A stretch of DNA of 64,000 nucleotides from Bacteroidales bacterium (lineage in GTDB: Bacteria > Bacteroidota > Bacteroidia > Bacteroidales > VadinHA17), in the NCBI GenBank assembly GCA_034002785.1, contig JAVEZX010000001.1, forward strand, positions 2,984 to 66,983, in the 5' to 3' direction. The position numbers and the translations under genes were made by a program. Below are positions 28,570 to 46,338 of the stretch, in pieces. The notes below the pieces were generated by a model that did no database searches, was not told where the DNA came from, and saw only the letters and a list, made by a program, of their open reading frames with translations. Each line of letters begins with the position of its first letter. The first letter of the stretch is position 1.

Positions 28570-29130
28570 ATGCATGATCCTGACGCCAATCTCTACTTCA
28601 TAGCCCTGGTTCCCGGGAAGGAACTGAGGGATAGGGTACTCATGATCAAGGAAAGAATGAAGGCGGAATTTAATGCAGGCCATGCATTGAAATCACCGGC
28701 ACACATTACGTTACAGATGCCCTTCAGGAGGAAGACAGCCGCGGAACAGTCCATCATAGAAGAACTCGACCGGTTTACAGCGGGCGTAGCCCCATTTCAT
28801 CTGCATCTTGACGGTTTCGGATGCTTTGCTCCCAGGGTTATTTTCATCAAACTGGTCAACCCGGATCCTGTCATTGAACTGCACCGTCGGCTTAAGGCAA
28901 TTCTCCTGGAAAGCCTTGGTTTTGACGACAGCGAAATCATGAAGAGCGTCCAGCCTCATATGACGGTTGCCACGAGAGATCTTACGAAGCAGGCCTTTGC
29001 AGAAGCCTGGCCTGAATATCAGGATGAGGAATTCATCGGGTCATTCCGGGTGAACAGCCTCTTCCTGCTGAAGCATAACGGAAGGCACTGGGACATATTC
29101 AGGGAGTTTCAATTCCGTGCAGATGGATAG
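28570..29130 (+). CDS. 2H phosphoesterase superfamily protein (LigT/2'-5' RNA ligase-like)
   Basis: Two H-x-T/S-x motifs are present: AHITLQ and PHMTVA. I chose ATG 28570, 5 nt after the nhaA stop. Confidence 0.7.
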   Translation: MHDPDANLYFIALVPGKELRDRVLMIKERMKAEFNAGHALKSPAHITLQMPFRRKTAAEQSIIEELDRFTAGVAPFHLHLDGFGCFAPRVIFIKLVNPDPVIELHRRLKAILLESLGFDDSEIMKSVQPHMTVATRDLTKQAFAEAWPEYQDEEFIGSFRVNSLFLLKHNGRHWDIFREFQFRADG

Positions 29131-32005: not shown

Positions 32006-32006
32006 T

Positions 32007-33473
32007 ATGAAGACAGCAAAGATTCTATTATTTGCCATTCTTTCAGCCGCGGCGCTTCAGCTGCATGCGAAGGATTACAATGCATCGATGTTCGGTGCAA
32101 AATCAAACGGAACCACTCTCAACACAAATTCAATCCAGAAGGGAATTGACTACATAAGCGAGAACGGCGGCGGCCGTCTTGTATTCTATGTAGGCCGGTA
32201 CCTGACAGGAACTGTCTACCTGAAATCAAACGTAACAATCCACCTGGAGGAAGGTGCAATACTTGTCGGTTCAACCAATCCCTTCGATTATGAAAGGAAC
32301 TTTAACTGGACTGCCCTGATTTTTGCGCTGGACCAGGAGAATATAGGGATCACCGGCAAGGGCGTGATTGACGGACAGGGATTCCAGGTGGCCACCAACC
32401 TCGTGGACATGATCCACAAGGGGGTAGTAAAAGATCCTCTGAAATATGACCGTCCCAATGAAACCATCAGGCCGCAGAACATCTATTTCAGGGGCTGCCG
32501 GAACATAGTTATCCGGGACATCAACCTGCGGGATCCGGGCAGCTGGAACCAGCAATACGACCAGTGCCGCAATCTGGTCATTGATAATATAAGGGTCGAC
32601 AGCAAGTCATACTGGAACAATGACGGGGTTGACATCGTGGACTGTGACAGCGTGGTTGTTTCAAATTCCTACTTTGATGCAGCTGATGACGGTATCTGCC
32701 TGAAATCGCACAGTGCCGACTTCGTTTGCCAGAACGTATGGATCCGCAACAACACAGTCAGGACCAGTGCCAACGGCATCAAGTTCGGCACTGTGGGACA
32801 CGGCGGATTCCGTAATATAAGTATAGTTAATAACCTTGTGTTTGACACATACAGGTCGGCAATCACCTTTGCCGCTGTTGACGGGGGTTTTGTCGAGAAT
32901 ATTGTTGTTGACAGCCTGCGGTCGCTTAATACAGGCAATGTCATCTTCCTGAGGATAGGAGAACGGCGGGCCGGGAAAAAAGGGAGGATGAACGGTGTGA
33001 CGATATCCAACGTATATGCGGAGGTTCCGGCAACCAAGCCTGATGCCGGCTACAACTATGAGGGACCGGTGGAGGATCTTCCCCGGAATATCTCTCCCTC
33101 GGCAATTGTGGGCATGCCTGATGCCATGATTGAGAATATTACCCTTCGAAATATTGAGATTCACTACCCCGGAGGAGGCAACCCGCATTATGCGAAAGTC
33201 GGGCTTGACGAACTGGACAAGGTGCCGGAGATGGGGGCGAGTTACCCGGAGTTTTCGATGTTCAAGGAGTTGCCGGCCTGGGGATTCTATATCAGGCACG
33301 CAAAAGGAATAACATTTGAGAATGTGAGACTGGTGTGCGATAATAAGGATTACCGGACAGCAGTGGTACTGGATGATGTCAATGGCGCCACATTCAGAAA
33401 CCTGGCGGTGAAGGAACCAGGAGGCAGAAAGGCGCCGGTGTTTCATTTCAGATCATCGGAAATTGTGCTCTAA
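32007..33473 (+). CDS. Glycoside hydrolase family 28 (polygalacturonase/rhamnogalacturonase-like, right-handed beta-helix)
   Basis: GH28 motifs WNNDGVDIVDC, AADDGICLKSH and SANGIKFGT.GHGG, plus a signal peptide. Confidence 0.85.
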   Translation: MKTAKILLFAILSAAALQLHAKDYNASMFGAKSNGTTLNTNSIQKGIDYISENGGGRLVFYVGRYLTGTVYLKSNVTIHLEEGAILVGSTNPFDYERNFNWTALIFALDQENIGITGKGVIDGQGFQVATNLVDMIHKGVVKDPLKYDRPNETIRPQNIYFRGCRNIVIRDINLRDPGSWNQQYDQCRNLVIDNIRVDSKSYWNNDGVDIVDCDSVVVSNSYFDAADDGICLKSHSADFVCQNVWIRNNTVRTSANGIKFGTVGHGGFRNISIVNNLVFDTYRSAITFAAVDGGFVENIVVDSLRSLNTGNVIFLRIGERRAGKKGRMNGVTISNVYAEVPATKPDAGYNYEGPVEDLPRNISPSAIVGMPDAMIENITLRNIEIHYPGGGNPHYAKVGLDELDKVPEMGASYPEFSMFKELPAWGFYIRHAKGITFENVRLVCDNKDYRTAVVLDDVNGATFRNLAVKEPGGRKAPVFHFRSSEIVL

Positions 33474-33487
33474 GATTTTGCAGACCA

Positions 33488-34177
33488 TCATCCCAGTTCT
33501 GAAATCTTACTGAGAAAGACATTGTCGATAATTGTGACGTCACGTCCGTGGACACTGATAATGCCTTCGTTTTTGAGTTCTGTTAGCAGCCTTACCGTAT
33601 TCTCCTCTGAGATTGCTGACATTTCTCCCAGTTCTTTCCTTGTCACCGGCAGTCTGAAGCTGTCAGTTCCGTAAAACGAAGCCAGTGAGAGCAGGCTTTC
33701 TGCAATTCTCCCCCTGATGTTTTTCTGATTGAGGCAGATTATCTTTTTCATTATCAGGGCAACTGACTTACCAAATGCCTTATTGAGCCTGAGAAGCACC
33801 TCGTGGTTCTCCAGGTACAGTTCCTTCAGAAGATCGAGCTTTACCATGCAGACCTGTGAATCTTCAATTGCAGTCACGGAATATGTATAATGAATACTCT
33901 CGAAGAATGATAGCAGGCCGATGTATGCAGGGGGCCTCATGAGATACAGTATTATGTTGTGGCCGTTGATGCCTTCAATGTACAGTTTCGCAGTTCCTCC
34001 GGTCAGGTAGATGGCATGGCTGACACTGTCTCCCTGCCTGCAGATCATCTCATGCTTGCGGAATCCTGCCCGGATAATACTTGATTCGGGTACAATTCTC
34101 CCGGACCTCCTGAAGGCATCATGGAGATCACACTTGTTCCTGCATGCCTCACAGGGCATCTTGCCGTTAATCCTCAT
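33488..34177 (-). CDS. Crp/Fnr-family transcription factor of the FNR type (putative Fe-S cluster cysteines)
   Basis: The N-terminal C9-x2-C12-x3-C16 (PCEACRNKCDL), together with C110 in AIEDSQVCMVKLDLL, aligns with E. coli FNR ALETSMVC122EIPFETL. The recognition helix SEENTVRLL keeps the E and R of the FNR E--SR motif (FNR: VETISRLL). Confidence 0.8.
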   Translation of the reverse strand: MRINGKMPCEACRNKCDLHDAFRRSGRIVPESSIIRAGFRKHEMICRQGDSVSHAIYLTGGTAKLYIEGINGHNIILYLMRPPAYIGLLSFFESIHYTYSVTAIEDSQVCMVKLDLLKELYLENHEVLLRLNKAFGKSVALIMKKIICLNQKNIRGRIAESLLSLASFYGTDSFRLPVTRKELGEMSAISEENTVRLLTELKNEGIISVHGRDVTIIDNVFLSKISELG

Positions 34178-34278
34178 TTCCAGCAGGTTAAGACATAGAG
34201 TCGAATCGATTTAACATTACACCTTCTGTAATCCGCGCATCAAGCCGTTAAAAACCGGGTTGTCATTGTCAAATATAG

Positions 34279-34292
34279 TTGATTTATATCAA
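34279..34292. promoter_or_regulatory. Perfect FNR-type box TTGAT-N4-ATCAA in the divergent intergenic region
   Basis: TTGATTTATATCAA is read directly at 34279..34292. This is about 91 bp upstream of ATG 34383 and about 102 bp upstream of the fnr-like start (34177). Confidence 0.65.
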
Positions 34293-34382
34293 TGTTACAT
34301 TGCAAGATTATGCCTGGAATTCCATATTTCAAAATCTCTATTTTAGCTAATCCTTAATGGAATATTAAAAACCCTACACTAC

Positions 34383-35153
34383 ATGGAATCTAGCGATCAG
34401 TACAATTTCAGTATCTTCGCCCCCCGCAACAGACACGGCAGGAAGAACAGGAATGTAATCTTCACCATGCTTGCCATCTGGGCGGTGGCAGTATTCGGTT
34501 TTCAGTTTCTTCTCAGGATAATAGAGAAGCCGACGCCCGAAAAGGCTCTTGGAGTATTTGAATCAGCCTGGCCGGTAGTAACGGGAGGAAATGGGGAGCA
34601 GGCTGATTACAGCGCTGTTCTCAATTCTCTCATTATGGTAAAGGGGAAGATTACTGTTTCGGCAGCTGATCAGAGGGTTCTGGGTGATGCAATAAGTTCC
34701 GTCACCTTCAGAATAGTGCCGGACTCCCTCAGTACAATGGTAATGGAGAAAGTTGGAGAGCTGGAGATGATGCATGAGGAAATCTCCACCTTAAAGGGCA
34801 AACAGTATATGGATCTTAAATACCGTATACAGGACGCAAGCGCCAGCCTGATAGGCATTCTTGAGCCCTTTACAGGATACACGACATCAAGCCTGGAGGC
34901 GCCGATACTTGCAGCAAGTCTTAAAAAGGAATTCCCGGCTTCACTGACTGAGACATCGCTCATACGGCTCCCTGAGATCATGAAACTTTATCTCACTCAT
35001 AACCAGTCGGTGCTTACCGATACGAAATTCCTGGGATTTCCTTTCCATTATTTTTATACCGCCGTCTTTCTGCTGGTACTTTTCGTAGTGCTTTGCATTG
35101 TCTATAACAGGATGATAGAGTGGCGCCTGAGCAAGGAAGGCATTGTTGAATAA
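34383..35153 (+). CDS. DUF4212-like small subunit of an SSS permease, expanded by a ~155-aa insertion between its two TM helices
   Basis: The N-terminal segment NRNVIFTMLAIWAVAVFGFQFLL and the C-terminal segment FLGFPFHYFYTAVFLLVLFVVLCIVYNRMIEW resemble the two halves of ~85-aa DUF4212 proteins. Residues ~50-205 between them have no counterpart that I know of. Confidence 0.6.
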   Translation: MESSDQYNFSIFAPRNRHGRKNRNVIFTMLAIWAVAVFGFQFLLRIIEKPTPEKALGVFESAWPVVTGGNGEQADYSAVLNSLIMVKGKITVSAADQRVLGDAISSVTFRIVPDSLSTMVMEKVGELEMMHEEISTLKGKQYMDLKYRIQDASASLIGILEPFTGYTTSSLEAPILAASLKKEFPASLTETSLIRLPEIMKLYLTHNQSVLTDTKFLGFPFHYFYTAVFLLVLFVVLCIVYNRMIEWRLSKEGIVE

Positions 35154-35171
35154 GTAAATAAGCAGAGCGAG

Positions 35172-36851
35172 ATGAAAAAGTTATACTTCACACTTATATT
35201 ACTCCTGTCGGGAGCAGTTTCAGCCAGTGCACAAAATCTGACCCAGCTCGAAGGAAGTTTCAAGACAGGTCCGGCAATCATACTTATTACTATTCTTGTA
35301 GTATTTGTCCTGGTAGGAATCTTTTTCCGGGCCAAGGATCCAACTGACTATTATGCTGCCGGAAGGAGTATTTCCAAGGTCGGTTCGGGTATGGCAATTG
35401 CCTCAAACTGGATGAGTGCAGCATCAGTCCTGGGCATGGCGGGGATGATGTACGGTTTCGGTTATAACGGGTTGGCTTATGTTGTTGGATGGACCGGAGG
35501 CTATGTTCTTCTGCTGATACTGATGGCTGCCCAGATCAGGAAATACGGTAAGTATACGGCACCTGACTTCATCGGCGACCGTTTCTACTCACGTGATCTC
35601 AGGATCATCAGCGCCATATTCACGATCCTGATATCATTTGCCTACTGCGTCGGGCAGTTCGGAGGCATAGGGCTGATGTTCAAATGGATCCTGGGGCTTA
35701 ACTATACCTGGGCAGTCATCATAGGCTCCTCGGTAGTACTGCTTTATACCCTCATTTCGGGTATGATAGGGGCGACAAAGAACATGCAGATTCAGTATGT
35801 TATCATTGTGATCTCATTTCTTATGCCTGTATTCATTCTGGCGTTCAAGTTTGATTATTTCTGGCTCCTGCCTCAGATCGGGTACGGTGCAGCTGTGACT
35901 GATATTGTACAGGGTATACCCGCACCAAATTTATCTGACGGAGTGGCATTGCTGAATGCGTACGGGCACGATTTCTCAATCGTACCCAGTCCTGAATTTG
36001 CAATGCCCTGGGATCCGTCAACAGGGACAACTTTCTTCCAGTGGATGGCAATCTGTTTTTCCCTGATGGTTGGCACAGCAGGTCTTCCGCACGTGATACA
36101 GAGGTTTTATGTAGTGCCTAAGATTACAGATGCGAGATGGTCGGTTGTATGGGGGCTCTTTTTCATATGCCTGGTCTACTGGACAGCTCCCGCATATGCA
36201 ACATTTGGAAAGATTCTTTCTTCGAATCCTGAGGTGGGGGTGCTTGCAAAGGATGCCATTGTTGTCTACACAGCGCAGCTTGGAGGTGTCAACTCCCTGA
36301 TTGTCGGTCTGCTTGCTGCAGGCGCGGTATCAGCTGCTTTCTCCACCGTCTCAGGGTTGCTCGTGGCAGGTGCCTCTGCCTTCTCGCATGACCTTTATGT
36401 CAAGGTCATCAATCCAGCCTCCACCCCGAAGCAGCAGTTGAAGATAGCCCGCATAGGCACTGTTCTGATGGCCGTGCTGGTAACGATTGTGGCATTAATG
36501 AAACTTGGGCTGATTGCACAGCTGGTCTCCGTAGCGTTCTCGATGGCAGCCTGTACAATTTTTCCGCTGTTTCTCCTCGGCATCTGGTGGAGCGGCTCAA
36601 ATAGGGCAGGCGCAAAGGCCGGACTGCTGGCAGGCAGTCTTGTCACCTTCATCGCGCTGACGTACTTCATTGTGGGCCTCAGTGGTGGCTCTCTTCCCGG
36701 GCAGGCCTTTATCTCTTACTGGCTTAATGTCTGGTATTTTGCATGGTTTGGAGCACCACTGGCGATAGTGGTGAATATTATTGTCTCGAAGCTGACCAAA
36801 CCGACCCCCCTGGAGATTAAAAGATTTCTGGCCGAACAGGTTCATAATTGA
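35172..36851 (+). CDS. Sodium:solute symporter (SSS) family permease, ActP/VC_2705-like
   Basis: 559 aa with about 13-14 TM helices. The SSS N-terminal signature region is YYAAGRSISKVGSGMAIASNWMSAASVLGMAG. It follows a DUF4212-like gene by 18 bp. The N-terminus MKKLYFTLILLLSGAVSASAQN is unusual in looking like a signal peptide. Confidence 0.85.
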   Translation: MKKLYFTLILLLSGAVSASAQNLTQLEGSFKTGPAIILITILVVFVLVGIFFRAKDPTDYYAAGRSISKVGSGMAIASNWMSAASVLGMAGMMYGFGYNGLAYVVGWTGGYVLLLILMAAQIRKYGKYTAPDFIGDRFYSRDLRIISAIFTILISFAYCVGQFGGIGLMFKWILGLNYTWAVIIGSSVVLLYTLISGMIGATKNMQIQYVIIVISFLMPVFILAFKFDYFWLLPQIGYGAAVTDIVQGIPAPNLSDGVALLNAYGHDFSIVPSPEFAMPWDPSTGTTFFQWMAICFSLMVGTAGLPHVIQRFYVVPKITDARWSVVWGLFFICLVYWTAPAYATFGKILSSNPEVGVLAKDAIVVYTAQLGGVNSLIVGLLAAGAVSAAFSTVSGLLVAGASAFSHDLYVKVINPASTPKQQLKIARIGTVLMAVLVTIVALMKLGLIAQLVSVAFSMAACTIFPLFLLGIWWSGSNRAGAKAGLLAGSLVTFIALTYFIVGLSGGSLPGQAFISYWLNVWYFAWFGAPLAIVVNIIVSKLTKPTPLEIKRFLAEQVHN

Positions 36852-37627
36852 TGAGTCTTAACGATCTGACTGTCATATCACCCGGAACCAGGAAATTACT
36901 TGCAATCACTTTATCGGTTGCATCGCTGGCAGTGATCTTTGCTTTCTTCTACTACCGGGGAGTCAACCGGTCAGAAGACCCGCGAGTTGCAAAGGCACAT
37001 GAGTATATGGCGGAATATGACCGTCTGTCTGGCGGCACTGAGAGCGTCTCCCTATTCTACCTGCTCGATTCAGCCGGGAGTATCTACAGGCGGGTACCCG
37101 GTTACGGCTCATCATATGAGACAGGGGTTATTTACAACAACAAGGGCAGCAGCATGCTGCTTAAGGCGTTGTATGACAGCTCGCTGGCCTCAACTGAAAA
37201 GGTCACTCTGCTGGAGCTTTCAGTCAGCTATTGTGACAGCGCTGTTATGGTTTACAGAAACTGGCTTGCACACTGGGACTCTCTTGCTGAAGATGAGGTT
37301 GCAGTGAGGCTGAAGGAGGAGATGAGTGAAAGCGACCCTGCCTTCGCGGGCCTGAATTTCAGGCGTGTTTTCAAAAGGAGAGTCAGGGATATCATGCTTG
37401 CCAGTGTTGAGACTCCACGGAGGCTCTCCGTAAGCTATACCAACAAAGGCATGGCATACCGTCATATGATGATGCCGGATTCCGCACTGGTGTATTATGA
37501 CAAGGCTCTGATACTATGGAAGCACAATCGCACCGCTGAGAGCAACCTGAGTGTGCTCCTTGGAGGAGAACCGGTGAAGCCGGGAATAATTGAATCGTTA
37601 TTTCCTCCTGACAGAAAGAAGAGGTAA
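36848..37627 (+). CDS. Hypothetical single-pass membrane protein with a TPR-like C-terminal motif
   Basis: TM helix LLAITLSVASLAVIFAFFYY. TPR-like segment YTNKGMAYRHMMMPDSALVYYDKALILWKHN. Its start overlaps the permease stop by 4 bp. Confidence 0.5.
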   Translation: MMSLNDLTVISPGTRKLLAITLSVASLAVIFAFFYYRGVNRSEDPRVAKAHEYMAEYDRLSGGTESVSLFYLLDSAGSIYRRVPGYGSSYETGVIYNNKGSSMLLKALYDSSLASTEKVTLLELSVSYCDSAVMVYRNWLAHWDSLAEDEVAVRLKEEMSESDPAFAGLNFRRVFKRRVRDIMLASVETPRRLSVSYTNKGMAYRHMMMPDSALVYYDKALILWKHNRTAESNLSVLLGGEPVKPGIIESLFPPDRKKR

Positions 37628-37685
37628 CCGGCTGACTTTTCTAATGCCGGTATCATGATCAGATATGAACTTAAAACAAACCGAA

Positions 37686-38927
37686 ATGAAAAAGGTATCG
37701 CTTATAATCGTTTCCATTCTTTGCTTCGGGCAGGTTATAGAAGCCCAGGATGAAGACAAGGGGTGGGGAATAAAGTTCTCAGGTTTCGTAAAGACTGACA
37801 TCTTCTATGATACCAGGCAGTCAACCGCTTCAAACGGCCTGAGGGAAGGCCACTTTTACCTCTTTCCTGACAATGTGCTATATGACGATGAGATGAACGA
37901 CCTCAATGCCAATCCGTCGTTTCACATTCTTAATATTCAGACCAGGGTAAGGGGTGATATCTCAGGCCCAGACGCTTTCGGAGCGAAGACTTCGGGAGCC
38001 ATTGAGGCCGAATTCTTCGGAACCGGTGAGAGTGACATCAACGGCTTCAGGCTGAGGCACTCTTATGTAAAGATGGAATGGCCAAAGGTGACGCTTCTTG
38101 CCGGACAATACTGGCATCCGATGTTCCCGGCAGAGAATTTCCCCGGCACGGTGAGCTTCAATACCGGTGCCCCCTTTGTTCCGTTCAGTCGTAATCCACA
38201 GGTCAGGGTTGTTTACACTCCGGGTAAAATGTTAAGCATGACGCTTGCAGCATACTCACAGCGCGACTTCACCTCACCGGGCCCTGACGGTAACAGCAGT
38301 AAATATATCAGGAACAGCGGGATGCCCGGTATGCATCTGCAGCTCAGACTGCCTGTCAGTAATAGTCTGACAGCCTGGGGAGGGGTGGATTATAAGGTTC
38401 TCCGTCCTGAAATCAAGACCCCGGCTAATACTGAGACCTCTGCCACCGTGGGAAGCCTTTCAGCGTTTGCCACACTGAAACTGAAGAGAGGGCCGGTTAA
38501 TTTTTCGGTCATGGGAGTTTATGCAGAGAACGCCGCTGACCTGATGATGATCGGGGGGTATGCATCAGCCGGATATACTGATCCTGTCGTTCAGGAAAGG
38601 GAGTGGACAAACCTGAATACAGCCTCTTTCTGGGCTGATATCAGCACAACCGTAAAGAAGACAAGTCTCGGACTGTTTTCAGGCTACAGCAAGAACCTTG
38701 GATCAAGATTGCCCATTGACGGAGATTTTTATGGCAGGGGAGGTAACATTGATCATCTGTTCAGGCTGTCACCACGGATAACGGTTTCGGAAGACAAGCT
38801 GAGCATTGCGACAGAGCTTGAAAGCACTCTGGCTGCCTATGGCACGACACAGCCCGACGGAAGAGTGACGGATACCGGCAGTGTCACCAACGTGCGTCTG
38901 CTGCTCAGTTTCATCTACCGTTTTTAA
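37686..38927 (+). CDS. Putative outer-membrane beta-barrel porin
   Basis: Signal peptide MKKVSLIIVSILCFGQVIEAQ, alternating beta-strand pattern throughout, and a C-terminal ...LLLSFIYRF (terminal Phe). It is the last gene of the permease operon. Confidence 0.55.
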   Translation: MKKVSLIIVSILCFGQVIEAQDEDKGWGIKFSGFVKTDIFYDTRQSTASNGLREGHFYLFPDNVLYDDEMNDLNANPSFHILNIQTRVRGDISGPDAFGAKTSGAIEAEFFGTGESDINGFRLRHSYVKMEWPKVTLLAGQYWHPMFPAENFPGTVSFNTGAPFVPFSRNPQVRVVYTPGKMLSMTLAAYSQRDFTSPGPDGNSSKYIRNSGMPGMHLQLRLPVSNSLTAWGGVDYKVLRPEIKTPANTETSATVGSLSAFATLKLKRGPVNFSVMGVYAENAADLMMIGGYASAGYTDPVVQEREWTNLNTASFWADISTTVKKTSLGLFSGYSKNLGSRLPIDGDFYGRGGNIDHLFRLSPRITVSEDKLSIATELESTLAAYGTTQPDGRVTDTGSVTNVRLLLSFIYRF

Positions 38928-41785
38928 ATGATCACGGTGTGGAAGTCGTTCCCTGCCTTCAGCATCAGCTCATTAATTTCCTCAATTGCCAGGGCAGCAA
39001 GGTATCGCTTATCGGCCAGCCTGACCCTGAAATCAACACTGTTATCCGGCTCGCGGCCACTGCTGATGCATGCAGCCTGGTGCGTGAGACGGATGAATGA
39101 GAGGTCTTTCCAGGCCCGCAACGACTTCCTGAGAAGGTCATGACTGATATGGTTGCCTTCGTGAAGCCCGAGGATCCTGTCAACAGTTGAATGTACGTCG
39201 AGTCCGTGTTTAAGTGCATACAGACGGATGACTCCCGTAAGTGCCATTAGCAGTCGCTTGATATCTGTTGTCTCTTCAGACAGGACCGAGTGTGAGGGAT
39301 TGAACTGCCTGAGTGCCGAAGACATATGATAAAAGAAAATATCGCTTGCCCGAAGGCTTGTTTTGACGTAATCCCTCAGTTCGCCGCACAGTTTTTCATC
39401 TCCGTAACAGAACCTGAAATCGAAAAAGATTGTGACATCAAGTATCTCGGAAGGCCCTGGTATCCTTATCCAGTCGGAAAAATAACTCTTCCATCTGTCG
39501 AGGGGCTGACACCATTTCGGGTTACCGGCCATATTATTCCCTTTGCAGAGGGTAAACCCGATCATGTCAAGCATGGAGTTGACTCTTTTTCCGAGGTCAA
39601 GGAAATAAACCGATGCCTCATCAAGCCTCTCTCCTGCGAGGTTTTCGAAGATTATAGCATTATCCTGATCCGTAAGGAAGCTTTGTTCCCGGCGTCCGGC
39701 GCTGCCTGTCTGGATAAAGGCGAAGCGGCACGGCGGTTCCCCGACTGCCTCGATGGCGAGAGCAATGACTCTCTGACAGATTGTATCAGCGATGGATGAG
39801 ATATTTAGTGATACTGCATACGCATCGGAATGGCCCTGCATCATGGCGAGGGATGCTCTCCGGCTTGACTGGCAGATCTTTCTGAGTTCTTCGGTGGAGG
39901 TTGCCCCGGCGATTTCCTTCATGATCAGCACAGGGGTCATTGCTGCTGCATGAGCGAGATCACGATATGTGACAATCCCGGTCACCTTGTTTTCCGCACC
40001 GGTAACGAGAAGGCATCCGGAAGAGCTGCTGCTAATCCGGCCGAGTGCAGAGTTTACCGTGGCATCATCCCGGATAAGAAACGGTGGCGAATGCATGAAT
40101 CTGAAGATCTCCGTACCGGGCAGCATTCCCTCCGCAATGCCAAATCCCATCGCTGCTGCATCTGCCGTACCCAATGGTTCCCCGTTGTTGTTAACCACAA
40201 TGATAACATCGGTGTCATTCTCCTTCATCAGGGAGAAGACTCGCTTAACCGGAGTCTCCTCACTGCACGTCACCGGAAGCCTCATGATAGCTGCCACCGG
40301 GGCTTCAGAAATATATGAAGCCCCAAAGTGACCATGCCCTGACAGCGGCAATGACGGTCCTGAAGCTGCCGCAGACAGCAGATCAACCATTCCGTCACAC
40401 CATGTTTCATCCGTTCCGGTATTTACAACGGCGAGGCTAACCAGTGCCCGGAACTCTGTGCCATCTCTTTTCCTCAGAAGGACCTCCTCATTGAATAATT
40501 GATTGCTCTGCTGAAGCATCTGTCTGATATTATCCAACTGCCCTGCATCGGCAAAAAGGGAATTAACATTATGTTTCTGCAGCTCCGGTAAATCATGATA
40601 GCCGAACAGTTCAAGGACCGGATCAGTGGCGTAGATGAATCTTGGGTTTCTCGCATAGGTCAGTCGGAATAAACCTGTGCCGGCACGGTTAAGAATCGAG
40701 ACAGGAATCTGTAAGGCTGAGGCCGGTGCCAGGCTTGTTGCCGGTCGGATAACGATAAGTACGGCATTCCGGTCACCAAGCGTCAGCCTCGAAAAATCAG
40801 CATGACAGTTAATCATGTCGCCTGTTCCTGTTTTAAGCCTGCAATCCGTATATTGTCTTGCAGTAAGCTCGTCATATAGCACTTTATGATTATTTGTGCC
40901 GCTGATTCCATCTGAGACCAAGATATCTGACAATGTGCGGTTCAGAAGCTCTTCCTCGGTCAGCCCTATCCATGATAACAACGTTTTATTGGCCTGCATC
41001 CCACTGTATGACCATATTATCACCCCTTCGGATGCTGCCTCAGCCAGTGTCCTGTACAGTTCCCTGGATTTTCTCAGCTCGTCTTCAGTCCTGCTTCTTT
41101 TCTGTTCTATCTTATGACTCTGCCGTGAAATGGCAATGAGAAGAGCAAGAATCAAGAGTCCGAAAATACCTGATATTGCTACTGCACTGATCTCCATTCT
41201 TCGAATCTCACTTCTGACATCCTCTATATAAATGCCAGTCCCTATAACCCACTCCCATGGTTCAAACAGTCTTACATATGACAGTTTTGGGACAATGCGT
41301 GTGGAATCATCATTCCACTGCCACATATACTCTACATAACTTTCTCCGGTTTCAGCCACGGCATCAACGAACTCGACGAAAATTGCCTTCCCCTTCGAAT
41401 CGTGGAATCCGGTGAGGTCCTGTCCGTTGAGTTCCGGCCTGTAAGGATGGGTTATCATCACTGGCTGTCTGTCAGTGATCCAGAAATAATCCTTGAGATC
41501 CTCTCCGTACCTGATGTTGCTTACGGCTCTCTTTGCCTGTTCCTGTGCCTCAGCCATGTCGGCGGCACCCGCACTCTCAAGTGAGTGGTAGTATTCAAGC
41601 AGGCTGTAAACCGAGGCAGTCATTTCATGAATAAGGTTCCTCTTCCGGTCCATCATTACTTTTTCAAATCCCGGTATCAGGTAGAGGAAGATCATGCCGG
41701 CAAAAAGAATGAATGCCAGCAATGCAGGGAGATCCACCTTAAGCAGGAAGAGCCTTCTTCTTCCTTTCGAAGCCTTCTCTTTCAT
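38924..41785 (-). CDS. Membrane sensor: sCache_2 - TM - 2x PAS-like - CBS pair - DUF294 nucleotidyltransferase - DUF294_C
   Basis: TM1 is LLAFILFAGMIFLYLIP. The sCache_2 pattern is AKRAVSNIRYGEDLKDYFWITD...ITHPYRPELNGQDL...VEYMWQWND..PKLSYVRLFEPWEWVIGTGIYIEDV. TM2 is AVAISGIFGLLILALLIAI. The CBS pair covers ~495-625. The pol-beta NTase motif FIQTGSAGRREQSFLTDQDNAIIF (G-S-x10-D-x-D) lies at nt 39659..39709, followed by a helical C-terminal domain. Confidence 0.8.
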   Translation of the reverse strand: MKEKASKGRRRLFLLKVDLPALLAFILFAGMIFLYLIPGFEKVMMDRKRNLIHEMTASVYSLLEYYHSLESAGAADMAEAQEQAKRAVSNIRYGEDLKDYFWITDRQPVMITHPYRPELNGQDLTGFHDSKGKAIFVEFVDAVAETGESYVEYMWQWNDDSTRIVPKLSYVRLFEPWEWVIGTGIYIEDVRSEIRRMEISAVAISGIFGLLILALLIAISRQSHKIEQKRSRTEDELRKSRELYRTLAEAASEGVIIWSYSGMQANKTLLSWIGLTEEELLNRTLSDILVSDGISGTNNHKVLYDELTARQYTDCRLKTGTGDMINCHADFSRLTLGDRNAVLIVIRPATSLAPASALQIPVSILNRAGTGLFRLTYARNPRFIYATDPVLELFGYHDLPELQKHNVNSLFADAGQLDNIRQMLQQSNQLFNEEVLLRKRDGTEFRALVSLAVVNTGTDETWCDGMVDLLSAAASGPSLPLSGHGHFGASYISEAPVAAIMRLPVTCSEETPVKRVFSLMKENDTDVIIVVNNNGEPLGTADAAAMGFGIAEGMLPGTEIFRFMHSPPFLIRDDATVNSALGRISSSSSGCLLVTGAENKVTGIVTYRDLAHAAAMTPVLIMKEIAGATSTEELRKICQSSRRASLAMMQGHSDAYAVSLNISSIADTICQRVIALAIEAVGEPPCRFAFIQTGSAGRREQSFLTDQDNAIIFENLAGERLDEASVYFLDLGKRVNSMLDMIGFTLCKGNNMAGNPKWCQPLDRWKSYFSDWIRIPGPSEILDVTIFFDFRFCYGDEKLCGELRDYVKTSLRASDIFFYHMSSALRQFNPSHSVLSEETTDIKRLLMALTGVIRLYALKHGLDVHSTVDRILGLHEGNHISHDLLRKSLRAWKDLSFIRLTHQAACISSGREPDNSVDFRVRLADKRYLAALAIEEINELMLKAGNDFHTVII

Positions 41786-41789
41786 GATC

Positions 41790-42566
41790 TTATCCAGGTG
41801 TTACCTTTTCATGTATAAGATTCAACATCCCGGTCTCTGTATCTATAACCGAGAAGGAAGTTCTTCCGTTGCCTCCCGTCAGAGGGGGAAGCAGAATCAT
41901 TGTCATCTCATGTCCGAGAAAAATCCGGTCGCCGGGAACAGGATGCAGGGCTTTCACAAATGATATAGTACCGTTGTGTGAGAAATATGCAAACGGCTTG
42001 TGTGAATGACCTGACAGTGAGTAAGTGATACCGTGATTGCGCATGAATTTCCACAGCTCTTTTAAGTGGTGCTGACGTTCAACATACCGTGTTGTTGAGC
42101 CTGTAAAATCGGGACAGACATAATGTGACAGGAGAATAGCTGACCCGTTTTCAGATACAATTTCATATTCGGGTATGGATCTGAGATAATCTGTCTCCTC
42201 ATCACCAAGGTCACTGGTGTCTTCCCCTTCAAAGGACCAAACAAGGCCCGCCGAGGTATCCCTTCTTTCTGAGGGGGTCATTTGGAACCAGTTTTCAGGG
42301 TACCTGTATCCGTTTGACCATGAGGGCAGTCTGCCGGCGGCAAAGAGATCATGATTTCCGGCCACCACCCACCGGCAACTTGATTTAATCAGCGATACAC
42401 ATAGTCTGGCGCTTCTCCGGAAGTGGTAATTATAGAACCTGCGGTCATAACCTGCAATGTCACCGAGGCAAGCCAGCTCATCGCAACCATGAGCCTCTGC
42501 CACCCTGAGCACGGCTTCAAGCATTGACACATTCTCATGGATGTCAGTTATTATTCCGATTTTCAT
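41790..42566 (-). CDS. Calcineurin-like metallophosphoesterase
   Basis: Motifs DIH (ITDIHEN), GD (CLGDIAG), GNHD (VAGNHD) and GHSH (LSGHSHKP). I chose the start at ATG 42566 (MKIGIITD). The stop lies 4 bp upstream of the sensor-NTase start. Confidence 0.8.
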   Translation of the reverse strand: MKIGIITDIHENVSMLEAVLRVAEAHGCDELACLGDIAGYDRRFYNYHFRRSARLCVSLIKSSCRWVVAGNHDLFAAGRLPSWSNGYRYPENWFQMTPSERRDTSAGLVWSFEGEDTSDLGDEETDYLRSIPEYEIVSENGSAILLSHYVCPDFTGSTTRYVERQHHLKELWKFMRNHGITYSLSGHSHKPFAYFSHNGTISFVKALHPVPGDRIFLGHEMTMILLPPLTGGNGRTSFSVIDTETGMLNLIHEKVTPG

Positions 42567-42707
42567 CTCTTCCTGAGGATGAAAGTGCCTCATCAGGCAC
42601 TGTTATCAGTTACCAATTTACGCACATTTGCCGGAATAGTGTACAGCGCAACAGGATCAGGCAATAAAATTGAAAATATCAGTACTATTGTGAAAAGATT
42701 TTTCTTA

Positions 42708-43616
42708 ATGAATCGCGATTACTCAGATTTCTGTGACAGAGGTGCAACCTGGAAGGAAGAATACGTTTCACTTCCCACGGGGGTGGAGCTGCTGTCGGTA
42801 GTTTTCACCCCTCCGGAGCCGGTGGCGGGTCCGGTAATCCTCTTCATACCCGGATTTGTTTCACTGATTGATAACTTCAGGGGGACACTTGTTGAGCTCA
42901 CTCGAACCCATACCGTAATCTATGTTGAAACCCGCGAGAAAAGCACAGCCAGAATTAGTCAAGATCACCGGTTTTCTGTAGATGATATTACATCAGATGT
43001 AGTTCATTTTGCGGAGCTCCGGATTCCTGAAGGACTACACTTTGTCATGGCAGGCTGGTCCCTTGGAGCCACTGCCATTGCAGAGGCCTTCCCTCGTCTT
43101 GTGCGCAAGCCCGGGGCGGTGCTCCTGATTGAGCCCAACAGTTCGTTCCCCTTCAATAATCTGGCACTCTTCTTTGCGAGGCTGGCAAAATTTATATACA
43201 GGCCGGTGGTTCCATTTGTGAAGTGGTATATGAGGACCTTCCTCATCGATATTAAGACCGATGAAGAGATGTATCTCATCAACTGCCGCAATCTTGACAC
43301 AGCCGAGCCGGCCAGGCTGGGAATGGCAGTCAGGGAGCTCAGCCGTTACCGGATGGCCGGTAGTCTTGAACAGATATCCGTACCTGCGCTTGTGGTCGTT
43401 ACCTCAAAGGACCGGTTCCACAGTCACGGTGAGGGTACAGAGATAGCTGCCCGGATACCGGGCGCACAATGCCTTGATATGGAGGACAATAAAAGAACAC
43501 ACAGCGCTGAAATGGGCCGTGTGATCAGTGATTTTATTTCTTCTCAGGCAGGAAAACAAGCTCCATCAGGTCAGCCTTATCAAGAAATTTCTTTGTCATC
43601 TTCTTTACTTTCTTGA
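42708..43616 (+). CDS. Alpha/beta-fold hydrolase
   Basis: Nucleophile elbow GWSLGA, oxyanion region ILFIPGF, and a late His (KRTHSAEM). I chose the start at ATG 42708 (MNRDYSDF). The 3' end overlaps the convergent M16 peptidase gene by 83 bp. Confidence 0.65.
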   Translation: MNRDYSDFCDRGATWKEEYVSLPTGVELLSVVFTPPEPVAGPVILFIPGFVSLIDNFRGTLVELTRTHTVIYVETREKSTARISQDHRFSVDDITSDVVHFAELRIPEGLHFVMAGWSLGATAIAEAFPRLVRKPGAVLLIEPNSSFPFNNLALFFARLAKFIYRPVVPFVKWYMRTFLIDIKTDEEMYLINCRNLDTAEPARLGMAVRELSRYRMAGSLEQISVPALVVVTSKDRFHSHGEGTEIAARIPGAQCLDMEDNKRTHSAEMGRVISDFISSQAGKQAPSGQPYQEISLSSSLLS

Positions 43617-46338
43617 CGGTGAACTTGTTAAGTACATCTGCATAGTTTCTGTCATCATTGCTGTCGATCCCTGTGAGGTAGTAGTTGCGGATAGCATTTG
43701 CCCAGTAACTGTTGTGTTCACGTTCCTCCTCACGGGTTTTCATCAGGTTACTTACAGTCTTGTCCAGATCAACCTGCTTCGGGCCGTTGACGGCGATATT
43801 CTCCAGCTCCCTGTAGATGATGGCTTTCAGTTCCTGTGCTCTTGCAGGGTCACACTCGAAAGCAACCATGAGCATTGATTTCTCCTCCGGCCTTTTTTGT
43901 ATTGAAGCATTGACGGAGACACCGTACGTGCCACCCTCTTCCTCGCGAACCTGCTCTGTGTAGACGAGATCAAGGATGCCTTTGAGAATATCCATTCCCA
44001 GGTACTCAACGGGCTTGTATTTGAAGTCGGCCGAGTAGCTCATGACTACTGTTGCCTTTGGAACGGTAAGCGGAATAGCTATCTCTTTTTTGACCGTGCC
44101 CTCAGGCTGATCCATTCCCAGGTTCCTGTAGGTTTCGGTGAGATATTTCGAGGGGAGTGATCCGATATAGAGGGATGCCATCTCGCGGGCCACTGCTTCA
44201 TCGATATTGCCTGTTATGAAGAAGGTGAATGACGAAGCATCATCAAATGCAGTCTGATAGATGTAGTTGATGTCATCGTATTTCAGGAGCTTCATTGATT
44301 CAGGAGTCAGGAGGAACGTTCTCGGGTGATATCCTGACATGTTCATCTGGAGGCTGTCAGACATAATTTTATTCGGGTCTTTCTGCATCATCGTGATTAC
44401 CGCCGTAAATCTTCCGATGATGGCATTGTATGCCTCCCTGTTAAAGTTGGGGCGGGCGAAGCGGAGATACAGCAGTTGCATCATTGTCTCGAAATCCTTA
44501 GGCGTGGAGGATCCAGTTATGGTCTGCACTGTCTCCTGTATGCCCAGTGAGACAGAGGCCTTTTTTCCGGCAAGCATCTTTGTCAGGGCCACGTTGTCAT
44601 ATTCACCTGCTCCGTACATGGATATTACCTGCGGGAAGAGGTTCAGTGCCGGTTCAAGTGAATCCGGGTAAAACGATGAACCGCCGAAGGCGTAAGCGCT
44701 GATACTTACGTTATCCTTTTCATAATCAGCATGTTTAAAGATTACTTTAGCGCCGTTGGCAAGGGTCCACTCGGTGGCTCCAAACTGAGGCAGAGAAACG
44801 GTCTTTATAATCTCAGCTCCCTTCAGCTCCTCTGAAATAAGGTCTGTACCGCCGGTTATATCTTCGTAGGGTTTGATCTCTGCTGAAGCTACCTTCTCCA
44901 ATATTGCCATCGCTTCAGCCTCTGTCATATGCTCCTTGTCAGCCGGTCCCTGGATACTGATAAACCTGTTGTCTTCAGTGGTCAGTTCCCTTAGCCTGGA
45001 GGTTACCTCCTCAGCGGTAATCTTTGGCAGGATTTCCTTATAGTAACCATACTGCACATCCATTGTCGGTATGGGTTCTCCGGTAAGGAAATGGTCCCTT
45101 ATCTGTGCAGCCCAGTCGTCATTGCTGATCTTGTCCTTCTGCTTGTAGAGATTTTCGAAATTTGAGAGCATGCTGGCTTTGGCCCTTTCGAGTTCCCCCT
45201 TTGTGAAGCCGTGACGCCGTGCCCTCTCCAGCTCAGTGACGGCGGCTTCAAATCCTTTCGCCTCCTGACCGTCATTGGTGTACGCAGCCACGTTAAGAGC
45301 GTTGTAGCTTCTTGGCAGGTCAGCAGAGTAGCTGAGTGCCCCGGCGATGAATGGAGGTGTTCCTTTCTGTACTATCTCGCTGAAACGGTTACCCATCATC
45401 GTGTTTATCAGGGATGTGACGAATCCGTCACGTATATAATCCAGGTCCCTGGCCCTCTTATCCGGTTCCTGATCAAGGATCATGAGGCTTACGGTTGTCC
45501 TCGGGGCCTCGGGATCGGTGATGAGGAGATACTTAGTACCCTTCTTTGTTGTGAGGAGGTTCTCCGGTCTTGGTATCGGGTTCTCAATTGCCGGGATGGG
45601 TGAGAATATCTCTCTGATCCTGGCTTCGACCTCATCCACGTTGATGTCGCCCACGACTGCAATAGCCTGCAGGTCAGCGCGGTACCAGTCGTGATAGAAG
45701 GCCCTGAGTGTCTCCGGGTCAAAGTTTTTAATGACTGCGGTGTCACCTATTATATCACGTTTGGCATACATCGAGCCTTCATATACTACGGGCAGCATCT
45801 GTGTCATCATCCTCCACTGGGCGTTTCGCCTGCTGCGCCACTCCTCCAGGATGACGCCTCGCTCCTTGTTTATCTCCTCCTCATCAAGAGTGAGGAAATC
45901 GGACCAGTCGGCCAGGATCATAAGGCAGGTGTCAACAAGGCCAGGCTTGTCAACAGGTACATCGCTCAGGTTATAGACAGTCTCGTCAAAGCTGGTGTAA
46001 GCATTGATGTTACGGCCGAAGGCTACACCGTGGCGTTCAAGGGTATTCAGGATACCCTTCCCGGGGAAGTGTTTTGTGCCGTTGAAAGCCATATGTTCCA
46101 GGAAATGAGCGAGTCCGTTCTGATTATCCTTTTCCAGGATGGCGCCAACGTTCTGTATTATGTAGTAGCTTGCCCTGCCTGCCGGCTCAGTGTTGTGACG
46201 GATGTAATAGGTGAGGCCGTTTTCTAGTTTACCGATCCGGTAATCAGGATCAACAGGAATAGCTTTGTCTGTGTTGCCCTGTGAAGAAGCTGACAAGCAG
46301 ACAGCAGCAAGAATCAGAAAAACTAAAGTCTTTTTCAT
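43534..46338 (-). CDS. M16 (pitrilysin/insulinase) family zinc peptidase, secreted, 934 aa
   Basis: Signal peptide MKKTLVFLILAAVCLSASSQG. Inverted zinc motif HFLEHMAFNGT (HxxEH) with a downstream glutamate in ERGVILEEW. Its size is consistent with a four-domain M16 enzyme. Confidence 0.9.
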   Translation of the reverse strand: MKKTLVFLILAAVCLSASSQGNTDKAIPVDPDYRIGKLENGLTYYIRHNTEPAGRASYYIIQNVGAILEKDNQNGLAHFLEHMAFNGTKHFPGKGILNTLERHGVAFGRNINAYTSFDETVYNLSDVPVDKPGLVDTCLMILADWSDFLTLDEEEINKERGVILEEWRSRRNAQWRMMTQMLPVVYEGSMYAKRDIIGDTAVIKNFDPETLRAFYHDWYRADLQAIAVVGDINVDEVEARIREIFSPIPAIENPIPRPENLLTTKKGTKYLLITDPEAPRTTVSLMILDQEPDKRARDLDYIRDGFVTSLINTMMGNRFSEIVQKGTPPFIAGALSYSADLPRSYNALNVAAYTNDGQEAKGFEAAVTELERARRHGFTKGELERAKASMLSNFENLYKQKDKISNDDWAAQIRDHFLTGEPIPTMDVQYGYYKEILPKITAEEVTSRLRELTTEDNRFISIQGPADKEHMTEAEAMAILEKVASAEIKPYEDITGGTDLISEELKGAEIIKTVSLPQFGATEWTLANGAKVIFKHADYEKDNVSISAYAFGGSSFYPDSLEPALNLFPQVISMYGAGEYDNVALTKMLAGKKASVSLGIQETVQTITGSSTPKDFETMMQLLYLRFARPNFNREAYNAIIGRFTAVITMMQKDPNKIMSDSLQMNMSGYHPRTFLLTPESMKLLKYDDINYIYQTAFDDASSFTFFITGNIDEAVAREMASLYIGSLPSKYLTETYRNLGMDQPEGTVKKEIAIPLTVPKATVVMSYSADFKYKPVEYLGMDILKGILDLVYTEQVREEEGGTYGVSVNASIQKRPEEKSMLMVAFECDPARAQELKAIIYRELENIAVNGPKQVDLDKTVSNLMKTREEEREHNSYWANAIRNYYLTGIDSNDDRNYADVLNKFTVKKVKKMTKKFLDKADLMELVFLPEKK

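Follow-up and report, generated by a model that had tools for sequence, protein, structure and literature searches.

A transmembrane Cache-DUF294 nucleotidyltransferase linked to a putative short-chain carboxylate transport locus in Bacteroidales: a candidate protein-nucleotidylylation switch

We report on a locus of seven genes at positions 33488-42566 of a 64,000-nucleotide stretch of contig JAVEZX010000001.1 from a Bacteroidales bacterium (this whole stretch is referred to as the window, and coordinates are positions in it). The locus combines genes of a putative carboxylate transport system with a convergent pair of genes, one for a 953-amino-acid receptor in which a Cache sensor, two PAS domains and a CBS pair precede a nucleotidyltransferase (NTase) module of the DUF294/COG2905 family, and one for a metallophosphoesterase (MPE). 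That the two groups of genes are functionally linked, and that they deal with the acetate, propionate, lactate and pyruvate class of short-chain monocarboxylates, appears to us highly probable. To the complete mechanism that we favour, a Cache-gated and reversible protein-nucleotidylylation switch coupled to the uptake of C2/C3 carboxylates, we assign a probability of about 0.45, somewhat short of even odds.

According to this mechanism, the locus would take up short-chain monocarboxylates by means of a DcaP-like outer-membrane (OM) channel, a VC_2705-type Na+/solute symporter of the SSS family whose DUF4212 subunit is enlarged, and an accessory protein with a TPR motif, and an FNR-like iron-sulphur (Fe-S) regulator would drive transcription of this transport arm through a TTGAT-N4-ATCAA box. 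The periplasmic sCache_2 domain of the transmembrane (TM) receptor would bind C2/C3 carboxylates, the PAS, PAS and CBS domains would probably integrate redox and adenylate status and control the NTase, and this GlnE/DrrA-type enzyme would AMPylate or UMPylate a protein target. By hydrolysing the phosphodiester, the co-transcribed MPE would take the mark off again, so that writer and eraser would make up a switch comparable to GlnD (NTase+HD), GlnE (adenylyltransferase and adenylyl-removing halves, AT+AR) and DrrA/SidD. The most likely target would be the permease complex or a cytoplasmic protein of the same pathway, whether enzyme or regulator, and the modification might either raise or lower uptake. 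A narrower and bolder version, in which Cache-PAS-CBS-DUF294 proteins form a new receptor class whose carboxylate-switched AMPylase or UMPylase directly modifies the symporter complex, with interchangeable phosphoesterases as erasers, seems to us rather doubtful.

Conservation of the gene set

Eighty-three loci were collected and their open reading frames (ORFs) searched with the proteins of the window. Forty-three of them form a close set, from metagenome-assembled genomes (MAGs) of Bacteroidales and Rikenellaceae with NTase identities of 47-78%, while 39 form a distant set with about 33% identity over the full length of the NTase, from Ignavibacteriota/Melioribacter, Lentimicrobiaceae, Saprospiraceae, Thermodesulfobacteriota, Aminicenantes, Sumerlaeota and Acidobacteriota. 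A core of six genes, in which those for the MPE and the NTase converge on those for the OM protein, the TPR protein, the symporter and the DUF4212 subunit (MPE>NTase><OMP<TPR<SSS<DUF4212), keeps its synteny in about 40 MAGs of Bacteroidales. Within the close set the MPE gene is present in 41 loci, the TPR gene in 39, the symporter and OM protein genes in 38 each and the DUF4212 gene in 35, and most of the missing genes fall at contig ends. The order of the core is kept despite unrelated flanks, as in locus L001, where MarR/RND efflux genes lie on one side and a methyltransferase gene on the other.

Gene order is scrambled in the distant loci; the NTase gene neighbours an SSS gene in 32 of the 39, and the OM-barrel family of the window occurs in 21. 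The permease beside these distant NTases is either of the VC_2705 type with an enlarged DUF4212 subunit, or of the ActP/MctC type with a YjcH-like DUF485 subunit, and symporters of the second type score up to 740 bits on the ActP model. Since the gene families stay together through rearrangement and through the swap to a sister transporter, they are functionally linked, and since dozens of genomes share the set although its flanks are unrelated, its arrangement is not due to chance. A fortuitous meeting of a transporter operon and an NTase operon might be suspected from the position of the two arms on opposite strands with no shared promoter, and from the lack of an FNR-type box upstream of the MPE gene; the recurrence of the same families in about 70 loci, in several phyla and in varied order, effectively refutes it and leaves it almost no probability.

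A first-pass annotation, made from the letters of the window, had proposed that the linkage of permease and DUF294 is conserved, and had named failed domain assignments or unconserved convergent gene pairs as grounds to give its reading up. Both checks came out in its favour: the convergent pairing holds in Bacteroidales and gives way to rearranged versions in several other phyla. It had also spoken of nine consecutive genes, a count that the ORF table reduces to seven, while every coordinate and spacing that it gave was reproduced and its calls of DUF4212, SSF, sCache_2, PAS, CBS, DUF294, DUF294_C and Metallophos domains were all confirmed with Pfam and NCBIfam hidden Markov models (HMMs). 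Its description of the locus as an undescribed module is right in that the variant is undescribed in the searchable literature, but the locus is no isolated case, as 593 genomes match. The 953-amino-acid protein itself is 100% identical to a Bacteroidales MAG protein. Its architecture is frequent, with more than 120 clusters (90% identity, about 953 amino acids) at 51-100% identity among the matches listed, and 593 stretches encoding it came up when one genome per species was scanned.

In four of the loci a porin, symporter or NTase gene is split into several ORFs (L002:12859-14094, L012:14933-16394, L020:183-3044 and L040:9998-12845). Near-identical counterparts of these loci are intact (L003 for L002, for example), and the splits probably represent assembly or sequencing frameshifts, not pseudogenes.

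The receptor, its nucleotidyltransferase and the phosphoesterase partner

The sensor-NTase gene (38924-41785, minus strand, 953 amino acids) converges on the gene for the OM barrel. Its sCache_2 domain (residues 44-197, 131 bits; 41195-41656, minus strand) follows a strongly basic N-terminus and lies between two TM segments recognised by hydropathy (residues 19-37 and 201-219), and is therefore predicted to be periplasmic. The best relatives of this domain in the PDB are PscD (5g4y, E 1.4e-32), whose ligands are glycolate, acetate, propionate and pyruvate, and Adeh_3718 (4k08, E 1.4e-31), whose crystal contained acetate. All seven contact residues of PscD (Y90, W92, H103, F126, Y143, W145 and K156) are identical here (Y100, W102, H113, F136, Y153, W155 and K167), and none of them varies among 14 homologues with as little as 51% identity; in PscD-type Cache domains, bulky hydrophobic residues keep out carboxylates of C4 or longer. 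The best NCBIfam whole-family match of the Cache region is the monocarboxylate sensor kinase MctS. The domain is thus predicted to bind C2/C3 monocarboxylates, and the predicted ligand class agrees with that of the two neighbouring transporter clades.

Behind the second TM segment, a cytoplasmic region (residues 238-616; 39938-41074, minus strand) contains two PAS domains (TIGR00229 at residues 238-350, PAS_9/PAS at 364-457) and a CBS pair, found in two stretches within residues ~497-616 (53.1 bits) immediately N-terminal to the NTase; the profile of this pair matches many CBS-pair structures. The sCache_2 receptors PscD, McpP, Adeh_3718 and MctS share the sensor type and the identical seven-residue C2/C3 pocket, but they end in the signalling domain of a methyl-accepting chemotaxis protein or in a histidine kinase, whereas the output here is a nucleotidyltransferase. 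No Cache receptor with such an output was found described in full-text literature searches. One Thermodesulfobacteriota locus (L061:11740-13533) also encodes a histidine kinase of sCache_2-PAS-HisKA-HATPase architecture, two genes downstream of the NTase gene, which suggests parallel carboxylate-sensing pathways in one locus.

The NTase module (residues 645-953; 38924-39853, minus strand) scores 133.3 bits on DUF294 (PF03445, cut-off 21) and 56.2 bits on DUF294_C (PF10335, cut-off 22.5). Its stretch G694-SAGRREQSFLT-D706-Q-D708 fits the signature G-x11-D-x-D, D789 provides a third acidic residue, and all of these positions are invariant in the homologue alignments; the general form G-x11-[DE]-x-[DE] is what we take to be the catalytic motif of GlnE/DrrA-type enzymes. 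No solved structure matches the module at sequence level, a family-profile search of the PDB included. An AlphaFold2 model of residues 630-953, built from 19 homologues (pLDDT 88.3, pTM 0.86), was compared with the PDB by Foldseek, and only four chains, all of them DrrA or GlnE, were retrieved at E < 1e-3. The best is the AMPylation domain of DrrA with Rab8a (6yx5_B, E 3.7e-8, query TM-score (TMq) 0.69, 12% identity), and the others are halves of GlnE (1v4a, TMq 0.67; two chains of 3k7d, TMq 0.63-0.68). The next fold class, that of the aminoglycoside nucleotidyltransferases (ANT(4')), has a TM-score of about 0.36. In the fold match, the helical DUF294_C domain corresponds to the substrate-side domain of GlnE/DrrA.

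The Pfam GlnE family (PF03710) is matched weakly (14 bits, with the cut-off at 24; E 0.034), so that the module is not a member of it by sequence, although weak sequence matches to GlnE agree in tendency with the fold; as modelled, it would be a GlnE/DrrA-type protein adenylyltransferase by fold. The idea of nucleotidylylation, already put forward in the first-pass annotation, gains support from this modelled likeness. No cyclase, cGAS-like enzyme, poly(A) polymerase, CCA-adding enzyme or terminal uridylyltransferase (TUTase) is among the Foldseek matches listed, and a cyclase or cGAS-like identity of the NTase was down-weighted on that account. The module is widespread: an HMM search of 1.84 billion representatives recovered 3,900 proteins that contain it (50%-identity clusters), 2,844 of them at E <= 1e-10.

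The MPE gene (41790-42566, minus strand, 258 amino acids) is co-oriented with the NTase gene and lies 4 bp upstream of it; its ORF could begin at 42593, and orthologues have 255-260 amino acids. The protein scores 57.3 bits on Pfam Metallophos, and its metal motifs (D8-I-H10, G35-D36, G70-N71-H72-D73, H148 and G186-H187-S-H189) are all invariant in the alignment of what is a small, dedicated family of 201 clusters. For an AlphaFold2 model of the MPE (pLDDT 85.6), the closest folds are 3rqz and SapH (3qfm/3qfn), a diadenosine tetraphosphate (Ap4A) hydrolase/phosphodiesterase, followed by YfcE, MJ0936 and Vps29, while Mre11/SbcD and PP1 are weaker, lower-ranked matches and class III cyclic-nucleotide (cNMP) phosphodiesterases are absent among the matches listed. 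With 3rqz, SapH and YfcE-like enzymes as nearest folds, an identity of the MPE as a class III cNMP phosphodiesterase or as Mre11 is unsupported.

The NTase is almost always paired with a phosphoesterase, and the fold of this partner varies. The Metallophos lineage of the window adjoins the NTase gene in 41 of the 43 close loci and lies upstream of it in 16 of the 39 distant ones; a second Metallophos lineage is found downstream and convergent in five distant loci, and a third downstream and co-oriented in two (Thermodesulfobacteriota). In eight distant loci of the Ignavibacteriota type, the place taken elsewhere by the Metallophos gene is occupied by a candidate phosphodiesterase of the Endo IV type, an AP_endonuc_2/xylose-isomerase-like TIM barrel with MJ1311 as its closest PDB relative (L046:3273-4097 and its equivalents in L052, L053, L055, L056, L059, L071 and L079), which abuts the NTase gene in seven and stands one gene off in L053. 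In a Sumerlaeota MAG (L083:9281-12907), a PHP domain forms the N-terminus of the NTase polypeptide itself (1208 amino acids). Altogether, an adjacent or fused phosphoesterase partner is present in 32 of the 39 distant loci, and in Proteobacteria and Cytophagales an RNase_T exonuclease is encoded by a separate neighbouring gene.

Fusions recur among the longest homologues. Eight DUF294 representatives of more than 1,060 amino acids were listed, of which six have an N-terminal PHP domain (P0329, P0369, P0381, P0345, P0281 and P0312) and one an N-terminal RNase_T domain (P0321), ahead of Cache-PAS-CBS-DUF294. Enzymes of the TrpH/RNase AM and pAp-phosphatase types are the nearest relatives of the PHP domain. 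The NTase is therefore found next to, or fused with, four unrelated folds that cleave phosphodiesters, and this non-orthologous displacement, together with the Rosetta-stone fusions, argues that NTase and phosphoesterase form one unit with two activities.

Such a unit might act on something other than a protein. The two enzymes could make and degrade a nucleotide second messenger or small conjugate when carboxylate is present in the periplasm, to be read by a receptor that is possibly the adjacent regulator of cNMP-binding fold. Cyclases and cGAS/DncV-like enzymes are known among NTases of the Pol-beta fold, nucleotide hydrolases occur among the partner folds (PHP near pAp phosphatase and RNase AM, MPE near SapH), the gene of a Crp/Fnr-fold protein that has a cNMP-binding domain is often a neighbour, and proteobacterial DUF294 proteins carry a cNMP-binding domain of their own. 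We nevertheless find this quite unlikely: the fold search returns DrrA and GlnE, and its listed matches contain neither a cyclase nor a cGAS-like enzyme, the DUF294_C domain has its counterpart on the substrate side of GlnE/DrrA, and the adjacent regulator is missing from half of the loci and has five invariant cysteines, typical of Fe-S and not of nucleotide sensing.

We consider it very improbable that the unit works on RNA ends, with the NTase adding tails and the exonuclease or phosphoesterase trimming them, so that symporter expression would be set post-transcriptionally. RNase_T, PHP (TrpH/RNase AM), Endo IV-like and Mre11-like Metallophos folds are nuclease-capable, which fits. The structural neighbours of the NTase are protein AMPylases, however, with none of the RNA-tailing enzymes named above among the matches listed; no RNA-binding domain was detected with Pfam and no Rfam element at 33000-43800; the fold of the MPE is nearer to small phosphodiesterases than to Mre11/SbcD; and the NTase is anchored in the membrane.

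The transport arm and its Fnr-like regulator

The DUF4212 gene (34383-35153, plus strand, 256 amino acids) opens the transport arm. Its product matches PF13937 in two stretches (47.9 bits, cut-off 30) and TIGR03647 (36.4 bits, cut-off 26.05), and hydropathy and the positive-inside rule predict an N-in topology with TM1 at residues 25-43, a periplasmic insertion of about 165 amino acids and TM2 at 223-241. The insertion is non-canonical for DUF4212 subunits; it is conserved in the family and shorter in Ignavibacteriota, and no PDB relative of it was detected. After a gap of 18 bp follows the SSS permease gene (35172-36851, plus strand, 559 amino acids), an SSF protein that scores 495.7 bits on TIGR03648 (cut-off 320.75) and 204-205 bits, below cut-off, on the ActP and MctC models. 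It belongs to the VC_2705 family, the sister clade of the ActP/MctC monocarboxylate symporters.

The TM/TPR gene (36848-37627, plus strand, 259 amino acids) overlaps the SSS gene by 4 bp. The protein has a single TM segment (residues 17-35) and reaches 27.0 bits on TPR_1, slightly under the cut-off, while the profile of its family matches consensus TPR proteins (E 4e-14, residues 195-246). It is present in 39 of the 43 close and one of the 39 distant loci, and is thus essentially a Bacteroidales-only accessory.

The last gene of the arm encodes the OM beta-barrel (37665-38927, plus strand, 420 amino acids) and starts 37 bp after the TPR gene, or 58 bp after it if counted from the second ATG. 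The protein has a signal-peptide-like N-terminus and ends in ...IYRF. Its score on Pfam DcaP is 27.1 bits against a cut-off of 27, which three of 24 family members reach, and the family profile matches Acinetobacter baumannii DcaP (6eus) at E 2e-5 over about 140 residues. The family is found next to the symporter in 38 of the close and 21 of the distant loci. Like A. baumannii DcaP, an OM beta-barrel associated with the uptake of anionic carboxylates, it would be a putative carboxylate porin, a distant DcaP-like channel, but one that is only borderline for the Pfam family. To call the locus envelope-spanning, as was done at first, is justified by its genes for an OM channel and an inner-membrane symporter, but a physical complex of the two is speculation.

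Divergent from the transport arm lies the gene of a Crp/Fnr-family regulator (33488-34177, minus strand, 229 amino acids; cNMP_binding 56.9 bits, HTH_Crp_2 48.7 bits in Pfam), for which CRP and FNR are the best NCBIfam matches, both far below cut-off. In an alignment of 29 orthologues, five cysteines are invariant (C9-x2-C12-x3-C16, C46 and C109), and C109 appears to align with C122 of E. coli FNR. Sensing of O2 or redox state through an Fe-S cluster is a reasonable inference from these residues.

The 205-bp intergenic region between the regulator and DUF4212 genes contains an FNR-type palindrome, TTGATTTATATCAA (34279-34292, without strand), 104 bp upstream of the ATG of the DUF4212 gene. It is the only exact TTGAT-N4-ATCAA in the 64 kb, where 0.10 would be expected, and at least one was found in nine of 100 shuffles. 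A sequence of the form TTGwT-N4-AwCAA, with 0-2 mismatches, occurs at -90 to -107 from the ATG (in one case at -78) in 21 of the 22 loci in which the regulator gene stands beside a DUF4212 gene, while none of the loci without the regulator has a box at that position at 0-1 mismatch. Where the regulator gene is divergent from DUF485-ActP, in distant loci, a TTG-N8-CAA palindrome is found in the intergenic region of 7-8 out of nine. A box that is conserved in place and co-occurs with the regulator marks the latter as a dedicated regulator of the transporter operon, and we regard this pairing of regulator and box as likely.

The regulator shares with E. coli FNR the Crp/Fnr fold and an identical consensus box, and has an N-terminal cysteine cluster plus the cysteine that seems to correspond to C122; it differs by its fifth invariant cysteine and its sub-cut-off score, and seems to be local and dedicated. 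FNR-type control as first proposed is supported by the five cysteines and by a box that is present only where the regulator is, but only about half of the loci have it as a neighbour, namely 20 of the 43 in the close set and 10 of the 39 in the distant set. Co-regulation of both arms by this protein is unsupported, as no FNR-type box lies upstream of the MPE-NTase operon. The only other near-match in the window, TTGATCTCGATTAA at 24354-24367, has one mismatch and ends 13 bp before an ORF starting at 24380, probably too close to the start codon for a comparable operator.

Relatives, the balance of evidence and other features of the window

A tblastn search of annotated plasmids with the CBS-NTase region gave 60 records, seven of which were sampled; the exonuclease is present in six of these and a symporter in four. 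Plasmids of Shinella, Agrobacterium and Skermanella show the order DUF4212-SSS-DUF294, a Paracoccus plasmid acs-DUF485-ActP-DUF294-response regulator-exonuclease, and in two Vibrio plasmids and one of Hymenobacter the DUF294 gene abuts a 3'-5' exonuclease gene with no transporter. The Shinella protein has the architecture cNMP-CBSx2-DUF294-DUF294_C, and the exonucleases are RNase_T proteins by Pfam, whereas the 953-amino-acid protein has no cNMP_binding match in Pfam and carries TM-sCache_2-TM-PAS-PAS at its N-terminus instead. The proteobacterial context given in the first-pass annotation, DUF294 proteins beside actP-type permeases and a DnaQ-like exonuclease, is thus borne out on annotated plasmids, where a cNMP-CBS-DUF294 gene lies beside DUF4212 and SSS or DUF485 and ActP genes and one for an RNase_T-type exonuclease, and so is its view that the system was rebuilt here, with a Cache for a cNMP-binding domain, a phosphoesterase for the exonuclease and a porin added. 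Small genes lie between the DUF294 and exonuclease genes in some of these loci: alpha-proteobacterial genes for 174-193 amino acids without a Pfam match (L084:7386-7916, L088:5766-6347 and L089:5930-6454), and in Paracoccus a stand-alone response-regulator receiver gene (L087:5916-6287). Their products could be targets or adaptors of the NTase.

The physiological data on such relatives point to the same substrates. Price et al. found DUF4212 and its symporter to be required for the use of D,L-lactate in Shewanella or D-alanine in P. stutzeri, and cofit with a neighbouring gene labelled COG2905. Growth on acetate and propionate induces PA3232-PA3235, regulons for these two acids contain ActP homologues, and Pflu5625 and PP_0353/PP_0354 are members of the CrbS/R (MxtR/ErdR) regulon, which includes acs. 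Protein nucleotidylation has itself been proposed, as a hypothesis, for proteobacterial DUF294 homologues. The initial statement that, apart from the permease, no component is characterised mostly stands, but must be qualified for the fitness data on DUF4212, the ligands of Cache homologues and the studies of the CrbS/R DUF294/exonuclease pair.

It could be argued from these relatives that the NTase-MPE pair serves as a general sensor of carboxylate and energy status, whose target is a global regulator or metabolic enzyme encoded elsewhere in the genome, and that adjacency to the transporter reflects a shared regulon, a proposal that differs from the favoured switch in the target only. Pairs without a neighbouring symporter (L043, L044, L064, L077 and L083; the Vibrio and Hymenobacter plasmids) agree with it, as do the acs gene of the Paracoccus locus and the membership of the Pseudomonas pair, with acs, in the CrbS/R acetate/propionate regulon. 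Against this stand the persistence of a symporter gene next to the NTase gene through scrambling and transporter swaps (38 of the 43 close loci, 32 of the 39 distant ones), the reported cofitness with a symporter subunit, and the membrane tether of the receptor, which favours a membrane target. We judge such a remote target unlikely.

Several observations weigh against the carboxylate-gated nucleotidylylation switch. Seven of the 39 distant loci have no adjacent phosphoesterase and seven no adjacent SSS gene, and some proteobacterial NTase/exonuclease pairs have no transporter nearby. Deletions of proteobacterial DUF294/exonuclease genes gave no or mild phenotypes, the mild defects being on propionate and pyruvate. 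The fold likeness of the NTase rests on a predicted model, and whole-word full-text literature searches found no biochemistry on any DUF294 protein. SapH, the nearest characterised relative of the MPE, cleaves Ap4A and ATP, not modified proteins. As for the regulator, the FNR model NF008365 is matched with 52 bits against a cut-off of 228, the cysteines are spaced Cx2Cx3C and not Cx2Cx5C as in E. coli FNR, and the conserved recognition helix reads E-x2-VR and not E-x2-SR. All partner folds (RNase_T, PHP, Endo IV-like TIM barrel and Metallophos) include nucleases and nucleotide hydrolases and suit nucleic-acid or small-nucleotide substrates equally well, and for this reason they fail to separate a protein substrate from a messenger or RNA; it is the fold of the NTase, because its matches are DrrA and GlnE, that tips the balance toward protein nucleotidylylation.

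Among characterised systems, GlnE (AT+AR) and GlnD (NTase+HD) keep writer and eraser together and exert signal-dependent control of nutrient assimilation. The DUF294 protein shares with them the fold of NTase plus helical domain and the G-x11-D-x-D signature, but its module falls outside Pfam GlnE, the locus encodes no PII or glutamine synthetase target, the presumed eraser is a separate Metallophos protein, and the input is an extracytoplasmic Cache domain. DrrA/SidM is the best structural match to the module, and SidD, a metal-dependent enzyme of phosphatase fold, reverses the tyrosine AMPylation made by DrrA. DrrA is, in contrast, a secreted effector that acts on host Rab GTPases and has no sensor domains, and SidD has a PPM fold, whereas the MPE has a calcineurin-like Metallophos fold.

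The nearest known counterparts are the proteobacterial COG2905 pairs (PP_0354/PP_0353 of P. alloputida, Pflu5625 of P. fluorescens, PA3232-PA3235 of P. aeruginosa and Sama_1522-1525 of Shewanella). They have in common with the locus the CBS-DUF294-DUF294_C module, the two sister symporter clades with their small subunits, an obligate phosphodiester-cleaving partner and a tie to acetate, propionate, pyruvate or lactate. Theirs is a soluble cNMP-binding protein, and here it is a transmembrane receptor with a periplasmic sCache_2 and two PAS domains; their exonuclease is replaced by a Metallophos enzyme, their control by CrbS/R (MxtR/ErdR) by an FNR-like regulator, and the locus further includes a dedicated OM channel, a TPR protein and an enlarged DUF4212 subunit.

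A DUF294 NTase with a phosphodiesterase beside a monocarboxylate symporter is thus already known from genome context and regulon studies. New are the receptor that takes its input through a periplasmic Cache domain, the enzymes of Metallophos, PHP or TIM-barrel type that stand in for the exonuclease, the fused forms, the local FNR-like regulator with its box, and the dedicated porin, of which no description was found in the searchable full-text literature. Aravind and Koonin, as cited in a later paper, predicted in 1999 that DUF294/COG2905 proteins act as signal-transducing nucleotidyltransferases, and a testable function is offered here for a family that has lacked one since. If the bolder version, with direct modification of the symporter complex, is real, DUF294/COG2905 would have its first function, a bacterial solute transporter would for the first time be seen to be switched by post-translational nucleotidylylation, and the phosphoesterases would form a new family of de-AMPylases. 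The predicted ligand, the GlnE/DrrA-like fold and the rule of the phosphoesterase partner turn what was an annotation dead-end into a few direct experiments, for a family of about 3,900 clusters at 50% identity that is present in acetate/propionate regulons of pathogens. Short-chain fatty acids rank among the main intermediates of anaerobic, gut-like and digester communities, and how abundant Bacteroidota and Ignavibacteriota there regulate their uptake may be of ecological relevance; the locus offers a candidate porin-plus-symporter route for small anions in Bacteroidota, for which SusC/D systems dominate current thinking.

Where the two arms of the locus meet, the stop codons of the NTase and OM barrel genes overlap in the palindrome TTAA (38924-38927), and the same 4-bp overlap recurs in most Bacteroidales loci, judging by their coordinates. 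The overlap leaves no intergenic room for terminators, and the porin and NTase transcripts must either overlap in antisense or end inside the opposite gene. Consensus scans of the window for promoters and terminators were at chance level (16 against 12.4 and 7 against 8.0, respectively) and hence say nothing about where transcripts end at this overlap. The search of 33000-43800 against Rfam found no family at E <= 0.1 and no conserved structured RNA, and a riboswitch was rejected for lack of any match.

Upstream of the MPE gene, a 359-amino-acid ORF (42537-43616, plus strand) overlaps the MPE gene start; orthologous alpha/beta-hydrolase genes encode about 295 amino acids, and from this comparison its true start probably lies downstream. 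Some relatives (L002:8161-9243, for example) have an additional gene, for 360 amino acids and without a Pfam match, between the hydrolase and MPE genes, which is missing from the window. Neighbouring GH106/GH28, M16 peptidase and alpha/beta-hydrolase genes were considered as parts of the system and rejected, since they keep their place only in close relatives, with NTase identities of about 57% or more. The GH106 (962 amino acids) and GH28 (488 amino acids) genes of the window lie directly beyond the regulator, at 29117-33473, and suggest a pectin/rhamnogalacturonan context on this flank.

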